Assembly: GCA_037446635.1 (NCBI GenBank)
Contig: JBBIIG010000046.1
Location: 1 to 31,780, forward strand
DNA length: 31,780 bases
Source of the DNA: a bacterium
GTDB lineage: Bacteria > Zhuqueibacterota > Zhuqueibacteria > Oceanimicrobiales > Oceanimicrobiaceae
Direction: 5' to 3'
Shown here: one piece after another, positions 24,383-31,780 of the stretch
Layout of the letters: every line of letters starts with the position of its first letter
Position numbering within the stretch: position 1 is the first letter of the stretch
Program-made: the position numbers and the translations under genes
The notes under the pieces: model-generated
The model's database searches: none
Told to the model about the DNA's origin: nothing
The model's input: only the letters and a program-made list of their open reading frames with translations

Positions 24383-25801
24383 ATGGCCGCTCATAAACTC
24401 TCCTTCTTTGAAACCGTTTTGACATTTTTTGATAAGGCCGCCGCTTACACCAATCACCCCAAAGGCCTCCTCGATCAAATCAAATACTGCAACAGCGTTT
24501 ATACATTTAAATTTCCGCTAAAAAAAGAAGACGGCTCCATTGAAATCATTCAGGCTTTTCGGGTGGAACATAGCCATCACCAGTTGCCGGTGAAGGGCGG
24601 CATTCGCTACAGCGAAGTGACCACCGAAGACGAAGTGAAGGCGCTGGCCGCGCTGATGACGTACAAATGCGCCATTGTTGATGCCCCGTTTGGCGGCGCA
24701 AAAGGCGGGGTCAAAATCGAGCCGCGCAAATATTCCGTGAACCAGTTGGAGCGCATCACCCGGCGTTACACCGCCGAGTTGGTGAAGAAAAATTTCATCG
24801 GCCCCGGCGTGGACGTGCCGGCGCCGGATTACGGCACCGGGCCGCGCGAAATGGCGTGGATTGTGGATACCTACAGCGCGTTTCATCCCGGACAAATCGA
24901 CGCCAGCGCTTGCGTCACCGGCAAGCCCATTGAGCAGGGCGGCATCCACGGGCGGGTGGAGGCCACCGGCCGCGGCGTTTATTTCGGCGTGCGCCACGCG
25001 CTTTCCCACGCCGAAGATTTAAAGCCGCTAGGGCTGACCCCCGGCGTGGAAGGCAAACGCGTGGTGGTGCAGGGACTTGGCAACGTGGGCTACTACGCCG
25101 CGCGATTTTTTGAGGACGCCGGCGCGCGCGTGGTGGCGATTGCCGAATACGACGGCGCCATTTACAATCCCGAAGGCCTGGACGTGGCCGCGGTTCAAAA
25201 ACACCGGCAGGAAAGCGGCTCGATTTTGAATTTTCCGAAAGCAAAAAATTTTTCCGCCAGCAAAGAGGCGCTCGAATACGAGTGCGACATTTTAGTGCCG
25301 GCGGCGCTGGAGCGGCAAATCACCGACGAAAATGCGCCGCGCATCAAAGCCAAAATCATTGCGGAAGGCGCCAACGGTCCGGTGACCGCCGAGGCCGAAG
25401 AGATTCTCAAAAAGAAGGGAGTGCTGATTATCCCGGACATGTTTTTAAACGCCGGCGGCGTGACCGTCTCTTATTTTGAATGGCTGAAAAACCTCAGCCA
25501 CGTGAAATTCGGACGCATGAGCAAGCGTTTTGAAGAAGCCTCCAACCTCTCTTTTCTGAACGCGATGGAACACATGACCGGCAAGCAGCTCACGCCCGAA
25601 GAACGCAGCCGCATCGCCCGCGGCGCCGACGAGATCGATCTCGTTAACTCCGGCTTGGAAGAAACGATGATCACCGCTTACGAGAACATTCGCGACACCA
25701 AGCTGCGCACCAAAGGCGTGCCGGATTTGCGCACCGCGGCGTATGTTTTATCCATCAACAAAATTGCCGTGGCGTACATGCAGTTGGGAATTTTCCCGTG
25801 A
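24383..25801 (+). CDS. gdhA: Glutamate dehydrogenase (Glu/Leu/Phe/Val dehydrogenase family)
   Basis: [57 protein letters not shown]. Confidence 0.93.
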
Positions 25802-25805
25802 GTTT
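25697..25805 (+). repeat. Direct repeat copy 1 (gdhA 3' end, 109 bp)
   Basis: Matches 26385-26493 with 2 substitutions; offset 688 bp. Confidence 0.97.
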
Positions 25806-25832
25806 AAACCATATTTTTCGGGGAGTTAAAAG

Positions 25833-26036
25833 ATGCTAAAAACGATTTGGGCTGTTGCAAAAGAGGGAAAGTTTGAACCTCTTGAAGAGATTGAAGCGGC
25901 AGATGGCACGAAGGTCCTCGTGACTTTAATCGAAGAGTATGATACAAAATTCTGGTTGAAAGCAAGCCAATCTTCGCTTGATGCCATTTGGAATAATTCA
26001 GAAGATGATGTCTATGAACAGCTACTTCAAAAATGA
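25833..26036 (+). CDS. Putative antitoxin for the downstream PemK/MazF toxin
   Basis: 67 aa, acidic C-terminus (SLDAIWNNSEDDVYEQLL) overlapping the toxin start; GGAG SD. Confidence 0.7.
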   Translation: MLKTIWAVAKEGKFEPLEEIEAADGTKVLVTLIEEYDTKFWLKASQSSLDAIWNNSEDDVYEQLLQK

Positions 26037-26347
26037 TGTTGTTTTAGTCCGCTATCCTTTCTCGGACTTAACCAGTTCAAAAATCAGGCCAGCGGTTATT
26101 GTAAGTTCTCCGCACATTTCGATGGATTTTATAATAGTTCCGCTTACCAGCAAGACTCAAACTCTTTTCTCCGGGGAGTTTCTCCTATCTAACTGGCGTC
26201 AATCAGGGTTGAACGTTGAGTCCCGCAGTTAAACGTGGTGTTTACACAGTTCATCAAAATTTGATTATCCGGAAAGTTGGAAAACTCACCAAAGCTGACT
26301 CCGAGAGTCTGGAGAATTCGTTGCGCGAATGGTTGGGGTTCAACTAA
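26014..26347 (+). pseudogene. PemK/MazF family toxin, frameshifted
   Basis: DVVLVRYPFSDLTSSKIRPAVIVS..VPLTS motif. An extra C in TCCC (26221-26224) gives an early stop at 26232; the shifted frame continues AVKRGVYTVHQNLIIRKVGKL...LREWLGFN* to 26347. Confidence 0.85.
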
Positions 26348-26384
26348 TAACTTGCGAGACGGTGTAATGTCCTAAACTTCGAAA

Positions 26385-26493
26385 ACCAAGCTGCGCACCA
26401 AAGGCGTGCCGGATTTGCGCACCGCGGCGTACGTTTTATCCATCAACAAAATTGCCGTGGCGTACATGCAGTTGGGGATTTTCCCGTGAGTTT
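26385..26493 (+). repeat. Direct repeat copy 2: orphan gdhA 3' fragment including stop codon
   Basis: Encodes [34 protein letters not shown], identical to GdhA; only TAT>TAC and GGA>GGG differ. Confidence 0.97.
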
Positions 26494-26510
26494 TATTTTG
26501 GGAGAAAATC

Positions 26511-26696
26511 ATGCACAACGTAAAAGAAGAAGCTATAAAACTAATTCAGCAGTTGAGTGATGATTGCACGTATGAGGACATCCAATATCACCTCTACGTA
26601 AAGCAGAAAGTTATGCGTGGTTTGAAAGCCCTTGAAGAAGGACGCTACATTAGCCACGAAGAGGTAAAACAAAAACTTTCTAAGTGGTTGAAGTGA
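26511..26696 (+). CDS. Putative antitoxin for RelE/ParE toxin
   Basis: KEEAIKLIQQL.DDCT.EDIQYHLYV.QKV.RGL..LEEGR.ISHEEVK..L.KW pattern; overlaps toxin gene. Confidence 0.78.
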   Translation: MHNVKEEAIKLIQQLSDDCTYEDIQYHLYVKQKVMRGLKALEEGRYISHEEVKQKLSKWLK

Positions 26697-27028
26697 TCAA
26701 ACGACGAAGGGAGAAGTGGCGATTAATCTGGACGGATCCAGCGGTGGAGAGTCTGTCTGAAATAGTCGAATTTATTAGTCGAGACTCCGAATATTATGCA
26801 GCCAATGTGGCCAAAGGTATCTATGAAACAGCCGAGAATCTTACTCTATTTCCTTTAATGGGAAGAACCGTACCTGAATTTAATCGAGAGGACTTCAGAG
26901 AACTCTTTTATCAATCCTATCGAATTATTTACAAAGTAGAATCTGACCGTATTGCCGTGTTGACCATTGTCCATTGCAGCCGTGATTTGTTGGCGTTGGC
27001 GCGCAGAGAATCCTGGGAGATTGGCTGA
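26684..27028 (+). CDS. RelE/ParE family type II toxin
   Basis: IWTDPA..SL.EI.EFI.RDS..YA, L..FP.MGR.VPE, RELFYQSYRIIY, VLTIVH.SR. Confidence 0.88.
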   Translation: MVEVIKRRREKWRLIWTDPAVESLSEIVEFISRDSEYYAANVAKGIYETAENLTLFPLMGRTVPEFNREDFRELFYQSYRIIYKVESDRIAVLTIVHCSRDLLALARRESWEIG

Positions 27029-27030
27029 TA

Positions 27031-27840
27031 ATGGACCAAAAGCTAATTTCCTACTGGTCCAACAAATCCGTCCTCATCACCGGCGCCTCCTCCGGCCTCG
27101 GCTGGGCGCTCACCGAAGCGCTGGCGCCCTTCAAAATTCAATTTGCCCTGCTGGCCCGCCGCGAAGAAAAACTCAAAGAACTAGCCGATAAACTCAAAGA
27201 CAGCGGCAGCACGTTTTGGCTGCGCGCCTGCGACGTCCGCCAGCGCGAGCAGGTAGTGAGCGCGGTGCGCGATTTTCACCAGCACGCCGGGCGCATCGAC
27301 GCGGCGTGGATCAACAGCGGCATCAGCCTCGATTCTTCCTTTGAAAAATGGAACTGGGATGGCTTCGAAAATCTAATTGATACCAATTTGAAGGGCGCGA
27401 TTTACACCATTCAAGCTTGCCTGGAGGTGATGGTTCCGCAGAAGTCCGGAGCGATTGTGGGAATCGGCTCGGCGGCCTCGATGCGCGGGCTGCCCAGCCG
27501 CGGGGTTTATAGTCTCACCAAAATTGGCCTCGATTATTTTTTGCAAAGCAAAGCCGCGGAGCTGCCGGAGATTCAATTCACGATGATTCACCCCGGCTTC
27601 GTGGATACGCCCATCAACGCCGGCAACCCCAATCGTTTCTGGCTTTTGACGCCGGAGAAAGCGGCGCAGATTATGATCAAAGCCGTGGCCCAACGCCGGC
27701 GGCTGATCATCTACCCGCTTCCAATGAAGTTACTTTATCGATTCGTGCAGACGCTGCCGCGGCCGCTGTTTCTGTGGCTGGCGCAGCGGACGCTGGAACT
27801 CAGCCGGCCCAGGTCATCGCAAAAATCTGTGAAAGTGTAA
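27031..27840 (+). CDS. Short-chain dehydrogenase/reductase
   Basis: ITGASSGLG, NSG, catalytic S and YSLTK, HPGFVDT. Confidence 0.92.
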   Translation: MDQKLISYWSNKSVLITGASSGLGWALTEALAPFKIQFALLARREEKLKELADKLKDSGSTFWLRACDVRQREQVVSAVRDFHQHAGRIDAAWINSGISLDSSFEKWNWDGFENLIDTNLKGAIYTIQACLEVMVPQKSGAIVGIGSAASMRGLPSRGVYSLTKIGLDYFLQSKAAELPEIQFTMIHPGFVDTPINAGNPNRFWLLTPEKAAQIMIKAVAQRRRLIIYPLPMKLLYRFVQTLPRPLFLWLAQRTLELSRPRSSQKSVKV

Positions 27841-27850
27841 AGTGCCAAAA

Positions 27851-27920
27851 TTTGAATTCTGCAATTTACCATTTTCATTTTGCACTTGATTTTCGCCTCT
27901 GCCTTTTGCCCTTTGCCGTT
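27851..27920. repeat. Degenerate heptamer tandem repeats between convergent genes
   Basis: TTTGAAT TCTGCAA TTTACCA TTTTCAT TTTGCAC, then TGCC at 27900, 27907, 27914. Confidence 0.55.
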
Positions 27921-27925
27921 TCACA

Positions 27926-28489
27926 TCAAAACAGCGGCCAGCGCACACCCACCACCAGCCCTTTGTATTCTTTCCCGAATTGAAACTGCGCCAGGTAGTT
28001 GTTGATGCCCACACCCAGCGATCCCACCGGCCGCCAACTGGCGCCCGGCGGGTCGATTAAGCCGACGCCCGCGGTCAGTGAAAAGGTGTTCAGACCGGTA
28101 ATTTTTTTCAAATCCGTGTAAAGCGATTTGTAGCCGGAGTAGAGACTATCGGCGGTGGCGATCAACTTTTGTTGAGCTTGAATGTTGTCGTCAGCCTTTT
28201 GTTGGTAATTTTCGAAGCGATTGAGCAGCGTGTCTTTTGCCGCTATGACTTTTTCGTACAGGGTTTTGTCGTTTTCCAGCAGTTCGATTTTCTTAGCGAG
28301 GTCGGCCACAACATTCTTTTTCAAAAGTAGAAACGGCTCGCCGTTGATGGTGAACTCCCAGGTTTCCGCGTCAAGTTGGCGGCCGGCAATTTGCTGGTTT
28401 GCGATCGTGAGAGTTGCAGTTGGCTGGGCAAGCAACGCCAGCGGCGCAAACAATGAGATCAGCAAAATTATCAAGTAAGTGCGTTTCAT
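27926..28489 (-). CDS. Hypothetical secreted protein (signal peptide, coiled coil, C-terminal beta strands)
   Basis: MKRTYLIILLISLFAPLALLA-QP signal peptide; central heptad helix; C-terminus FSLTAGVGL...GSLGVGI...LVVGVRWPLF. Confidence 0.8.
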   Translation of the reverse strand: MKRTYLIILLISLFAPLALLAQPTATLTIANQQIAGRQLDAETWEFTINGEPFLLLKKNVVADLAKKIELLENDKTLYEKVIAAKDTLLNRFENYQQKADDNIQAQQKLIATADSLYSGYKSLYTDLKKITGLNTFSLTAGVGLIDPPGASWRPVGSLGVGINNYLAQFQFGKEYKGLVVGVRWPLF

Positions 28490-28497
28490 TTTTTCCT

Positions 28498-28947
28498 CTA
28501 ATTTTGTAGGATGCCCCTTACTTTGGCAACCAATTCGTCTGAAGAAATATTTTGATACTCGTTTTCGATTTCCACCGCTCTGGCGGCGTGTTCTTCCTGC
28601 GCCCGCAAAATAGCCAGCGCCGCATCCACTTTGGCGCGATCCAACTCGCTCTTGGCTTTTTCATAAGCGGCTTGCGAGAGTTGTTGTTGATTTTTTAATT
28701 CCTCGTAGCGGCTTTCGATTTTTTTCAACTCGTCCTCGCGGCGCTGCAACTCTTCGAGAAGTTTTTTACGGCGATAGGCTTTAAAAATGAACAGGCCGCC
28801 GAGCGCCGACAGACCGAGCAGTACTGCCCAGGAATTTTTGCTGCCGAGCTTGAACTCTCGCAAAAAGAAAAACAGGACGATCGCAAACAGGGCGATGAAG
28901 ATGAGATGCTCGCCGTAGTCCCTCATAAATCTGAGAATGCCGATCAT
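28498..28947 (-). CDS. Hypothetical membrane protein (2 TM + long coiled coil)
   Basis: Two N-terminal hydrophobic segments followed by an E/K/Q/L-rich helix; ATGA overlap with upstream gene. Confidence 0.8.
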   Translation of the reverse strand: MIGILRFMRDYGEHLIFIALFAIVLFFFLREFKLGSKNSWAVLLGLSALGGLFIFKAYRRKKLLEELQRREDELKKIESRYEELKNQQQLSQAAYEKAKSELDRAKVDAALAILRAQEEHAARAVEIENEYQNISSDELVAKVRGILQN

Positions 28948-29549
28948 GATTTTGTCCCTCCCGTCGCGGCGGTTTTGCTGGCCGCTAATTTTTCGATTTG
29001 ACTGATCAATGAATGCAAAGGTTCGGTGCCGATGGAAATCGCCGCTGCCGTGATGATGACGCGCAAAATTGGGTAGTCTGAAATGTTGCCTAAAACTTTG
29101 TAAACCACGCCGCCTGTGCCGGTGAGCATGCTTTCTACCAACAGCACCAGATCGATCCCCAATTTAACCTCGAGCGCGATGGTGAAGGCCAGCGATAAAA
29201 TGAAGGCGAGGATGCGCGACCCCACTCGCAAATAACTCAAACGGATGAGCGCGGCTGGGATGATTTCCTTGCCGCCGACGTAGGGCCGTTCCGTCACCAC
29301 TTTCCACAGCACCCAATTAAGGACTTTTTCGGTTTTGGGCGCGTCCCCGCCCTGAAAACCATAGAGGCGATCGAAGCGTTGCTGTAGAACGCGCGCGCGG
29401 CGGTTCCAGAAGGTATGCAAATTCCATTTGAGTTCGATGTAGCCGAAGACGCTCACCAGCACCTCCAGCAGACGCTCCACAAAAATCGCCATGATCAAGT
29501 AAATGAAAAATAAAAACGTGATGCGGGTGATGACTTCGATGTTTTCCAT
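28944..29549 (-). CDS. Hypothetical multi-TM membrane protein
   Basis: AGGAG SD; AIFVERLLEV and IITAAAISIGTEPLHSLI motifs shared with the upstream gene's N-terminal domain. Confidence 0.8.
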   Translation of the reverse strand: MENIEVITRITFLFFIYLIMAIFVERLLEVLVSVFGYIELKWNLHTFWNRRARVLQQRFDRLYGFQGGDAPKTEKVLNWVLWKVVTERPYVGGKEIIPAALIRLSYLRVGSRILAFILSLAFTIALEVKLGIDLVLLVESMLTGTGGVVYKVLGNISDYPILRVIITAAAISIGTEPLHSLISQIEKLAASKTAATGGTKS

Positions 29550-29559
29550 TGCGTTCTCC

Positions 29560-30867
29560 TTAAGCCATGACCATCGGTTGAGCCTTAAAGGCGTTCACAG
29601 CGGTTTGAAATTCTTCATCCGCTTTCCAAAGTTTTGCGTAACGTTCCACGGCTTGTTTGAATTCCGCGTAAGGAAAATTGCCGCCGGGGCAAGCTTTCTG
29701 CGCGACGTACATGTGGGGGATAATCCCCTTGGGAAAAGTCGGGCTGGTTTTTTCCGGAAAGGCGACTTCGATTTGATGCATCAAAGCCCAGAGCGCGGTC
29801 ACCCGCGCTGCGGCATCCACTTGCTCGGCGGTGGGCCGCAGGATGCCTAAGCGGCCGTTGTGATTGGAAAACGGCACCTTCGGGCTGGTTTCAAAATTTC
29901 CTTGCAACGCGATGCCCAAAGAGTGGTTGTTATAACCGACAGCGTGGTTACCAAAACGGTCCCAGCGGCAGAGCACGCGAATGGCGCCGTCTTTGAACAC
30001 CACGCAGTTGTAGCCGGTGAGCCAGCCTTTGCGGTCGAATTCTTTGACCAACTCCTCGAACGGCGCGTCGGAGTGCATGGCGGTGTGATGATACACAATC
30101 ATGTCGATGGGTTTTTTGAACAGGTGGCTGTGCTCCAACCGTTCTGGCCGGTCGCCGCCGTCGTAAACGAAGCCGATGATCTGTTCGATAGATTTTGTTT
30201 TTGGTGGTTCGAGATCCGGTGCAGGCTCGGGTTTGCGTACAAGAACGGGTTTGGCCTCCGGCGCCGTTTCGGGTTTCGCTTCTTCGGCCGCTTTTTCTCG
30301 GGTCACCACCAGCCGCCGGTTGATAAGGAAGTTCATTAAAAAGTTGACCGGTTTGCTGCCGGCGCCAATGATGATACCGGTGAAGATGTACTCCAACGCC
30401 GTTGATTGAATGCTTTCTAGGCTGCCTTCACCCATTGCCCATCTCACAAAAATCCAGATGGAAAATTTCATGTAATAGCAGCCGGTCACGGCCACCAGCG
30501 TTCCCAAAATTTGCAGCCAGAATTCTTTGGTTACTTTGAGACGATCTGGGGCGGCCATTTCGTTGACGTCAAAACGGGAGTCGGGTTGAGCGTGAGTGGG
30601 GTTGGGCTCAATTTCGCGGGAATCGGCAGTTGCGGCGGCTGGCTGGGCCTGAAGAAGGGCGGCCTCCGCAAGGGCCAACTCGATGGATTGCAATTTTTGA
30701 TTTTCCTTTGCAATGGCCTCCTGTTCGCCGGTGACCTGCACCATGAACAGGCGGTTGATGATCCAGTTGAAAATGGTAAGAAAGCGTTCCACCATCAAAG
30801 CCAGCGTCAGCATCACACCCAATTTGGTGAGCAACGGAGCTAAGGGGATAAGCTCTCCATTCGGCAT
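29560..30867 (-). CDS. Membrane-domain / N-acetylmuramoyl-L-alanine amidase (Amidase_2/PGRP) fusion
   Basis: IVYHHTA, GYNCVV..DG, GNHAVGYN..SLGIALQGNF, PTAEQ, IIPH....KACPG (Zn ligands H260/H385/C393, Y286); N-terminal ~185 aa hydrophobic; P/E/K-rich linker; GAGGAG SD. Confidence 0.88.
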   Translation of the reverse strand: MPNGELIPLAPLLTKLGVMLTLALMVERFLTIFNWIINRLFMVQVTGEQEAIAKENQKLQSIELALAEAALLQAQPAAATADSREIEPNPTHAQPDSRFDVNEMAAPDRLKVTKEFWLQILGTLVAVTGCYYMKFSIWIFVRWAMGEGSLESIQSTALEYIFTGIIIGAGSKPVNFLMNFLINRRLVVTREKAAEEAKPETAPEAKPVLVRKPEPAPDLEPPKTKSIEQIIGFVYDGGDRPERLEHSHLFKKPIDMIVYHHTAMHSDAPFEELVKEFDRKGWLTGYNCVVFKDGAIRVLCRWDRFGNHAVGYNNHSLGIALQGNFETSPKVPFSNHNGRLGILRPTAEQVDAAARVTALWALMHQIEVAFPEKTSPTFPKGIIPHMYVAQKACPGGNFPYAEFKQAVERYAKLWKADEEFQTAVNAFKAQPMVMA

Positions 30868-31001
30868 CGGATTCTCCTCAGTTTGTGTGTGGAAAACTCA
30901 ACAGCTTATATTAAGCCTGCGTCCCGCTTGAGAATGCGAGTTAGTTAGTAGGACGTGGGTATTTCGGTGTATGATTTGAAGTGTTCAGAAATTTTGTGCT
31001 G

Positions 31002-31030
31002 AAAATAACGATGTCTCTTTTGAAAGTCAA
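31002..31030 (-). promoter_or_regulatory. Possible sigma70-like promoter for amidase operon
   Basis: TTGACT-N17-TATTTT on minus strand. Confidence 0.45.
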
Positions 31031-31244
31031 GTGAAATGATGCACAATCAGTTAGTGTTTTTTATCTGACAATTTTCTACGACAAAAAAGTAAGAATTTTA
31101 TTGGCTCGGATTTTCCATATTCTGGATATTGTTGGTATAAGACGAGTCGTATTGTTTTCCGCTGCTGGTATCTCTCGGATTTTTTTATGCGGGATTTCAA
31201 ATTTCTCTCAAAATTTTGGTTCCCGCAGAAAACTAAGAAAATTC

Positions 31245-31273
31245 TTGACTATATTGCGTCTTTATTATATATT
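31245..31273 (+). promoter_or_regulatory. Sigma70-like promoter for divergent gene
   Basis: TTGACT-N17-TATATT. Confidence 0.55.
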
Positions 31274-31404
31274 TGTTTCCATTTCATACCTCTTCTGAGG
31301 AAAGTGTTTTAATTTGCCCACCCAGCGTAATCTCATGTCGTATCTGAGGAAAGATATAGCGTAGGGGTTCTTATTTATAAAATTCATTTTTAAGGGGGAA
31401 AGCG

Positions 31405-31780
31405 ATGAGCTTTAATTCCAGGCTCACGGCAGACATTATTTTGTGTTGGCGTGTCATGGCAAAACATTTTTTTTGTTTGTGTGTTACGGTGGCAGCAGCG
31501 ATGAATGTCCATGCGCAAAATATTGCAATGGATTTCGATATTATTGGCGACACCAAAAACCGGCTGCGCCCCGGTGAAACTGCCAGCCTGGTCGTTATCG
31601 CACAAGCGCCAGTCCCCGGCTTTTTGAAACTTAGGATCAAACCGGAACCCCCACCATTCGGATTCAATTGGGATGCGAAGTCGCAAAACTGCCAACAGAT
31701 CTGCACGTTACGGGATACCCTGACTCTCAGCCCCACCATTGAGCACGGCGGGGTTTACATCTTCAATATTGTTGCGGAAT
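31405..31780 (+). CDS. Hypothetical secreted protein, 3'-truncated (not in ORF track)
   Basis: AAGGGGGA SD, then MSFNSRLTADIILCWRVMAKHFFCLCVTVAAAMNVHA-QNIAMDF...LRPGETASLVVIA...HGGVYIFNIVAE, open to window end; beta-rich. Confidence 0.7.
   Translation, partial: MSFNSRLTADIILCWRVMAKHFFCLCVTVAAAMNVHAQNIAMDFDIIGDTKNRLRPGETASLVVIAQAPVPGFLKLRIKPEPPPFGFNWDAKSQNCQQICTLRDTLTLSPTIEHGGVYIFNIVAE

Follow-up and report, generated by a model that had tools for sequence, protein, structure and literature searches.

A conserved four-gene cassette of holin-like, amidase and coiled-coil envelope proteins shared by several bacterial phyla

Layout of the four-gene locus

We analyzed a four-gene cassette (genes A to D) on the minus strand of a 31,780-nt stretch of bacterial DNA (hereafter, the window; positions 1 to 31,780 of contig JBBIIG010000046.1, GenBank assembly GCA_037446635.1) assigned to the family Oceanimicrobiaceae of the phylum Zhuqueibacterota. 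The window spans the entire contig, and its genome was inferred to share a class with loci titled candidate division KSB1. We found that the cassette is real and conserved, and that it is built from families without a curated name. Its features, with protein lengths in amino acids (aa), are as follows.

29560-30867, minus strand: gene A, 435 aa; holin-like three-helix membrane domain (approximately residues 1-185), Pro-rich and charged linker, YxGG motif and zinc amidase
30313..30867, minus strand: membrane domain of A, homologous to B and to the phage family phrog_20258; N terminus predicted outside and C terminus inside (N-out, C-in)
29683..30114, minus strand: Amidase_2 domain (PF01510) of A, with H260, Y286, H385 and C393; aligned to the solved amidase 6srt
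28944-29549, minus strand: gene B, 201 aa; holin-like membrane protein without a fusion partner, its cytoplasmic loop basic and enlarged
28498-28947, minus strand: gene C, 149 aa; two hydrophobic segments, then a coiled coil of ~90 residues; candidate i-spanin-like subunit
27926-28489, minus strand: gene D, 187 aa; signal peptide without Cys, beta domain, helix, four amphipathic strands and terminal Phe; candidate outer-membrane partner
27944..28084, minus strand: four beta strands at the C-terminus of D (residues 136-182), predicted from an AlphaFold2 model, strand alternation and Gly pattern to anchor the protein in the outer membrane
31002..31030, minus strand: candidate sigma-70-type promoter, score 9/12, ~135 nt upstream of A; barely above chance

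A preliminary description, made from the sequence alone, had reported four tightly coupled minus-strand genes with Shine-Dalgarno (SD) sequences, and the coordinates of the open reading frames (ORFs), their gaps and the SD-like stretches agree with this: A and B are separated by 10 nt, B and C overlap by 4 nt, C and D are separated by 8 nt, and each gene is preceded by a purine-rich SD-like stretch. The promoter proposed there is present, but it is one of seven promoter-like sites in the region, compared with 3.2 ± 1.6 in shuffled sequences, and is thus poorly distinguished from chance. Each of the four genes occurs once in the source genome. The other window genes are housekeeping genes by Pfam, and no Rfam match was found in 25800-31780. 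Upstream of A, the contig continues for only 913 nt, and the farther context of this copy lies outside the sequence; a divergent plus-strand ORF (31405-31779) with a signal-peptide-like start and no Pfam or NCBIfam match is cut by the contig end.

Conservation, spread and genomic context

Among 61 relatives, gene B was detected in 15, one of them the source genome, and the order A-B-C-D was kept at all 14 other loci. A wider pattern search with one genome per species yielded 78 loci, including nine of those 14; the patterns were exact, which makes this number a lower bound. Judging by record titles, which may be wrong, these loci come from approximately ten phyla: KSB1, Calditrichota, Bacteroidota, Acidobacteriota, Gemmatimonadota, Gammaproteobacteria, Desulfobacterota, Myxococcota, Fibrobacterota, SAR324 and CSSED10-310. 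The complete cassette was present in 66 of the 78 loci; among the 12 partial ones, nine run up to the edge of a contig, in one C and D seem to be merged by a frameshift, and two contain A and B only. Median intergenic gaps were 9, −1 and 12 nt, and comparison of the flanks across loci revealed no fifth gene family accompanying the cassette. In addition, the pairwise distances of the four proteins were correlated with one another (rho = 0.67-0.83; 54 loci plus the window). The genes that the preliminary description had treated as one operon are therefore conserved as a unit.

All four genes are under purifying selection, with dN/dS of 0.02-0.28 in 30 of 32 gene comparisons (eight unsaturated pairs, which are not independent; two further pairs were partly or wholly saturated). 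The distribution of the cassette is patchy: approximately 30 of 133 KSB1-phylum genomes carry it (20 full-length B matches and 10 diverged variants, the unpublished genome G132 being included in the tally), as do 3 of 201 genomes in the family of locus L102. In a midpoint-rooted FastTree phylogeny of 55 concatenated alignments, KSB1 copies fell into several clades intermixed with other phyla, and this scatter suggests that the whole cassette was transferred horizontally between phyla. Two genera (those of the window and L017) have the cassette inserted at the same site, next to SDR and glutamate dehydrogenase genes. At locus L021 (identical to L058), the cassette stands beside the same two genes but in opposite orientation, and this copy is distant in the tree. 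Between the glutamate dehydrogenase and SDR genes of the window, a small antitoxin-like ORF and a ParE_toxin gene (26511-27028, plus strand) are present, which are missing at the matching L017 site.

The surroundings are consistent with the phage-free location described earlier. By Pfam, no phage gene was present among the 26 other ORFs of the window that were scanned, and Terminase_6N was not found in the source genome (97% complete; the positive control was detected in 5/14). Across loci, phage structural or integrase Pfam domains occurred in none of the 125 nearest flanking ORFs, which were picked mechanically and many of which had no match at all; the flanks were mostly housekeeping genes. 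A PHROG tail label was attached to 2 of the 110 next-nearest ORFs, one a beta-lactamase-family host gene and the other a true tail sheath. Searches needing close or exact matches returned no viral or plasmid copy of the cassette. Judged by gene content, the cassette thus appears to lie outside prophages, as expected of type 10 secretion loci, with one of the 78 loci adjoining a gene cluster that resembles an extracellular contractile injection system (eCIS). In this Gemmatimonadales locus (L096, 11731-16726), tail sheath, T4 gp19 tube, baseplate and Pvc16_N genes, together an eCIS-like set, follow D by ~770 nt on the same strand.

These results bear on two alternatives. One is that the cassette is a decaying prophage remnant without host function, as might be suspected from the phage relatives of its components and from a few broken copies. 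This is contradicted by the selection and context results, namely purifying selection on all four genes, invariant catalytic residues (see below), an insertion site shared by two genera and the lack of prophage flanks, and we consider it hardly credible. The other is an abortive-infection or stress suicide module, by which infected cells would be lysed early and phage spread stopped. Such a role would match the patchy, mobile, defense-like distribution of the cassette and the ParE-type toxin-antitoxin pair 0.9 kb away in the window, but the flanks do not look like defense islands (one Mrr_N domain among the 125 nearest ORFs by Pfam, with no PADLOC scan) and the cassette has no sensor domain. 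We therefore regard this role as improbable.

The membrane domain, the amidase and their phage relatives

The C-terminal part of A matched Amidase_2 at residues 252-395 (E = 2.5e-16, Pfam) and aligned with solved amidases and T7 lysozyme. H260, H385 and C393 were unchanged in 68 of 68 homologues and Y286 in 67, and we take these four residues to have the roles known from the T7 lysozyme/PGRP family; the YxGG motif of A is also conserved. The fusion of a membrane domain to an amidase with intact zinc ligands, as initially described, was thereby confirmed at the sequence level, and A is predicted to be a peptidoglycan hydrolase with an intact active site, the kind of enzyme found in type 10 systems. 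The idea that an internal start provides a free amidase was rejected, as an SD with ATG or GTG lay within the linker in only 10 of 53 genes, at scattered positions and always with GTG.

B had been called a paralogue of A. Pairwise comparison did not reveal this (best BLASTP E = 0.99; 155 of 1000 shuffles scored as high), but profile alignment of the two membrane domains with hhalign did (probability 97.4, E = 1e-11). E25, R26, W48, R103, G174 and H179 of B are invariant, no shorter homologues of B were found, and B, C and D matched no curated family. The structure model of B (predicted local distance difference test, pLDDT, 84.7) gave no match at E ≤ 0.001 in a fold search (best Z 6.3), the rows being generic helices. 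The idea of an ExbB/TolQ/MotA-type motor was set aside, as no such family member was among the significant rows and homology pointed to a 95-aa phage family instead.

In 75 B and 68 A sequences, an acidic N-terminus, a basic first loop, an acidic second loop and a basic C-terminal flank recurred. From this pattern, the membrane domain of both proteins is predicted to be N-out with three transmembrane segments (TMs) and C-in, which is the layout of class I holins. Because of the same charge bias, we predict that the amidase of A rests on the cytoplasmic side, tethered by a linker of 47-81 residues among homologues. Such a tether is more in keeping with a gated endolysin than with an enzyme that permanently edits the wall from the periplasm. 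Both proteins also contain large conserved cytoplasmic insertions that are missing in their phage relatives.

Those relatives belong to phrog_20258, a phage family without annotated function that was reached by way of weak matches to stand-alone membrane domains of 120 aa. One motif scan of viral contigs had given seven loci and no homologue; another yielded 67 loci, 65 of which contained an ORF of 56-147 aa (mostly 90-125 aa) matched by the membrane-domain profiles, and all 18 viral ORFs tested were phrog_20258. The family aligned over TM2-TM3 with B (hhalign probability 96.7, E = 4e-10) and with the membrane domain of A (95.8, E = 7e-9). It shares the three-helix domain and the E..E and G-x-G-S-x-x-x-H motifs, whereas its members are shorter (~95-125 aa) and lack both the cytoplasmic insertion and the fusion. 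We scanned the neighbors at 55 viral loci, leaving out eight near-duplicates, two without an ORF and two without an extracted neighbor, and found a wall-hydrolase gene (Amidase_2, Amidase_3, GH25, M15, M23 or CHAP) adjoining the holin-like ORF in 31. In the annotated phage MZ503613, the homologue lies between the tail genes and the endolysin gene, 2 nt before the latter. Because phrog_20258 is homologous to the A/B membrane domain and occupies the holin position beside hydrolase genes, this domain is likely a holin, and the holin function first guessed for these proteins has gained comparative support. No C- or D-like neighbors of phrog_20258 genes were found at E < 1e-3, and a literature search for the family gave no paper. 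On one viral contig (L160 and L161), the holin-like gene occurs twice, ~3.7 kb apart.

Elsewhere, the same membrane domain adjoins a CAAX protease gene or is fused to a subtilase. Since these contexts are unrelated, homology alone is insufficient to set its function. In KSB1, stand-alone copies (L117, L119, L121, L122, L123 and L126) lie beside a CAAX-protease-like gene (confirmed for L117) and helicase-like genes, and look like a second, non-lytic use of the domain. The protein P0155 (916 aa) contains two copies around a subtilase.

Envelope proteins C and D and the proposed mechanism

As previously described, C consists of two hydrophobic segments followed by a coil; an S-x-E-E motif near its C-terminus is conserved. 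Its homologues showed weak Rz-like PHROG matches through TM2 and the coil (E from 6e-6 to 4e-3, the best being 6.4e-6). Four KSB1 loci encode a single-TM variant that retains only the second TM, preceded by a basic N-terminus and followed by acidic residues; it is homologous to C (probability 87.8), has an Rz-like match (E = 0.002) and reads as a type II membrane protein with the i-spanin layout. C is thus likely i-spanin-like. The lengths of C and D covaried (rho = 0.72, n = 54, uncorrected for kinship).

D agrees with its first description as a secreted coiled-coil protein ending in amphipathic beta strands and a terminal Phe. Behind the signal peptide, its AlphaFold2 model (mean pLDDT 81.5) comprises a helix at 58-131 and four strands at 136-182, with a small beta domain at residues 26-56, and Phe is terminal in 47 of 64 homologues. 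D is predicted to be anchored in the outer membrane by these four strands, which would need oligomers to close a barrel. The window D contains no Cys, and a lipobox-like pattern occurred in 3 of the 64 homologues and was conserved in none. As an o-spanin is an outer-membrane lipoprotein with a lipobox, D as predicted is not one. The earlier reading of this locus as a lysis toolkit of holin, amidase and spanin is supported, with an outer-membrane partner predicted to differ from the lipoprotein of known spanin pairs. Likewise, a unimolecular spanin combines a lipobox and a C-terminal TM in one protein (PMC12596118), and neither C nor D, both lacking a lipobox, appears to be of this type. Fold searches with D gave no significant match, the rows being filled by the long generic helix. 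Its language-model neighbors, which are a lead only, were phage-rich clusters and a DUF6808 (PF20647) cluster (feature score 0.91; 40% of cluster members carry DUF6808), and a literature search for DUF6808 gave no paper. A scan of 151 genomes for DUF6808 matched none, its control being silent as well.

The occupants of the C and D positions vary. In the four KSB1 loci with single-TM C, D retains the signal, beta domain and coil, and a hydrophobic helix at the end replaces the strands. In a variant cassette (L109-L111), the genes after A and B encode unrelated proteins without a Pfam or PHROG match, namely a membrane protein of 240 aa and an exported protein of 300 aa with beta strands at its end. 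Because of these replacements, the slot order of an inner-membrane protein followed by an exported outer-membrane-type protein is, by predicted topology, kept while its occupants differ.

The anchors of trimeric (type Vc) autotransporters consist of a coil followed by strands with inward Gly and a terminal Phe, and three chains together close a 12-strand barrel around the coil. D has this layout (coil, four strands, many inward Gly and terminal Phe), and the flank after TM2 of C is strongly basic. D could accordingly be a miniature surface protein of this type, with its coil passing out through its own barrel, and the coil of C a cytoplasmic scaffold for A and B, in which case there would be no trans-envelope bridge. 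Both YadA_anchor (PF03895) and DUF6808 resemble D in having short C-terminal amphipathic strands after a coil. Against this arrangement, no sequence match to D was found: YadA_anchor did not match the window D and was absent among the 25 families shown for 64 D members, and hhalign to one YadA-anchor-like protein gave a probability of 1.8 (a single sequence and a weak test). Furthermore, the helix before strand 1 of D bears bulky Tyr/Leu and Lys instead of small residues, and the four KSB1 loci combine a D ending in a hydrophobic helix with a C that is a plain type II membrane protein. We give this arrangement little credence.

Our preferred reading, to which we assign a probability of about 0.5, is that the cassette is a domesticated, type 10-like lysis machine with A and B as holins, a wall-cutting amidase and a membrane bridge or fusion device made of C and D, by which a subset of cells bursts. 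A and B would sit in the inner membrane, N-out and C-in, probably as mixed oligomers, with B perhaps setting the timing, while the tether would confine the amidase to the cytoplasm, out of reach of peptidoglycan, as long as there is no lesion. Once a lesion has formed, the amidase would pass or flip through it, or be cut loose, and reach and cut the wall. The coil of C would be directed into the periplasm; D would be exported by Sec, its four strands inserted into the outer membrane as an oligomer and its coil directed inward to meet C, end to end as ~13 nm and 11 nm of helix. We infer that C and D bridge the inner and outer membranes in this way. Once the wall is gone, the two coils would zip up and fuse both membranes, and the contents of the burst cells would be released. 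Lytic, prophage-free holin/endolysin/spanin operons encoded apart from their cargo provide a precedent, and gated wall cutting followed by membrane fusion has been shown for YenLC (PMC10847048). Among the uses suggested in the preliminary description (secretion, vesiculation, programmed lysis and cell-cell junctions), programmed lysis with type 10-like release fits best, and junctions found no support here.

Several observations weigh against this reading. No holin, spanin or outer-membrane family matched A to D above the curated cut-off. The function of phrog_20258 is itself unknown; 24 of the 55 viral loci lacked an adjacent catalytic domain of the above kinds, three of them having CW_7, VanY or C39 only, and the viral set was picked by motif, includes related phages and comes from hosts that are mostly monoderm-type by appearance. 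Close-match searches of viral contigs and annotated phages gave no relative of A, B or D except for the amidase domain alone. The Rz-like matches of C are weak and listed alongside generic coils, C also weakly matches ATP synthase b (E = 0.0065), and the two-TM form is ambiguous, as TM2 has basic residues on either side (2.6 and 3.5 K/R). At L069, L076, L113 and L115, A and B occur alone with genes on both sides, and C and D are therefore dispensable in some lineages. B showed dN/dS of ~0.5 in two related Gemmatimonadales pairs, A or B is split in L106 and L103, and A contains an in-frame TAG in L053 (L053:8427) and L094 (L094:392). An in-frame TAG also occurs inside a B match (G131:C130); broken genes, assembly errors and read-through are all possible for the TAG copies.

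Regulation and cargo supply further points of this kind. No regulator or cargo neighbor is conserved around the cassette loci, no trigger was found, and the 66 upstream regions share no dyad or operator, only A/T-run dyads exceeding shuffles. Tail-tube genes occurred in 5 of 30 cassette-bearing and 25 of 103 other KSB1-phylum genomes, without enrichment (the tallies include the unpublished genomes G132 and G135; G063 and G064, two of the 30, were counted from paired matches only). An eCIS as general cargo was rejected on these counts and retained for L096 alone, where the cargo may be an eCIS-like particle. The source genome has no tail-tube genes, and four of five cassette-bearing Gemmatimonadota genomes have tube genes (no control set). 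The cargo is probably lineage-specific and encoded elsewhere; the YenLC cassette, too, is encoded apart from its cargo (PMC10847048).

The main rival to the lysis reading is a non-lytic, local use of the same parts, in which the tethered amidase would make a local hole, and living cells would export folded proteins or shed vesicles by way of a stable conduit or pinch point formed by C and D. There are reports of non-lytic type 10 systems, including secretion without lysis in Salmonella (PMC13284979), and a "single event" flipping model was put forward for TpeE, a natural holin/endolysin fusion (PMC9527704). A covalent tether would likewise leave one enzyme per membrane domain with a short reach, and both the large conserved cytoplasmic insertions of A and B, which phage relatives lack, and long retention under purifying selection are consistent with local use. 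Conversely, the non-lytic Salmonella systems are without spanins, which are tied to full disruption (PMC13284979), whereas most cassette copies contain a spanin-like pair; nor is there a conserved cargo neighbor to be exported. We consider the non-lytic use somewhat unlikely.

In its predicted working, the cassette resembles type 10 and lambda-type lysis cassettes, and its place in either group is one of resemblance. Like Serratia chiWXYZ and Yersinia entomophaga YenLC (holA, pepB, Rz, Rz1), it is a four-gene prophage-free operon encoding a holin-like protein, a wall hydrolase and two envelope coiled-coil proteins, and may sit apart from its cargo (PMC10847048, PMC13284979). It differs from them in its fusion of Amidase_2 to the membrane domain, two paralogous membrane proteins, the lack of a lipoprotein and of an adjacent regulator, its unrelated sequence families and its occurrence in approximately ten mostly uncultured phyla. 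C resembles the i-spanin of Rz/Rz1 pairs in its membrane anchor and coil, its weak Rz-like PHROG matches and its penultimate place in a lysis-type gene order (PMC6139136); unlike spanins, D has a cleavable-type signal peptide, no Cys and a predicted beta-strand anchor, and C usually has an extra N-terminal TM (PMC6139136, PMC12596118). The TpeE family of Clostridium sporogenes, the one precedent found for a holin-endolysin fusion, resembles A in carrying the hydrolase on the cytoplasmic-side C-terminus of a holin, but it has one TM and is found in six genomes of one species (PMC9527704). The membrane domain of A, in contrast, has three TMs, belongs to a different family, is fixed across phyla and is accompanied by a paralogue and envelope partners. 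A literature search of freely accessible papers, at the level of titles and abstract openings, found no description of the four-gene cassette, nor is the unit described in the matching passages of PMC12596118, PMC10847048, PMC9527704, PMC6139136, PMC13284979, PMC10367356 and bioRxiv 2024.07.02.601686. With no curated family matching the unit either, the preliminary impression that the architecture was unrecognized still stands.

We also advance, tentatively and as a claim that may well fail, that C and D form a new class of spanin-like fusogen with an oligomeric beta-barrel outer-membrane subunit, that unannotated holins leash an endolysin in the cytoplasm, and that approximately ten phyla exchange a stand-alone programmed-lysis cassette that releases a contractile injection particle in at least one case. 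What is known of domesticated lysis cassettes comes mainly from a small number of enteric and clostridial pathogens; the present cassette occurs in environmental, largely uncultured diderm phyla. If the reading is true, the widespread phage family phrog_20258 would gain a function (holin), and C and D would offer a candidate answer to how the outer membrane is breached without a lipoprotein spanin; no spanin was found in 91 of 677 phages (PMC6139136). A would also be a natural multi-TM holin-endolysin fusion for probing large holes versus flipping in the passage of holin cargo, and the debate on lytic versus non-lytic type 10 secretion would become testable in harmless cultured hosts (L100, L102). 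Finally, envelope-related neighbors of the cassette were seen in single lineages (L082, L089:7013-7792 and L090; L060:156-695; L047:7389-7985; L072:10894-11823), comprising a PG_binding_1 protein, Amidase_3, DUF1353 and outer-membrane phospholipase A1.

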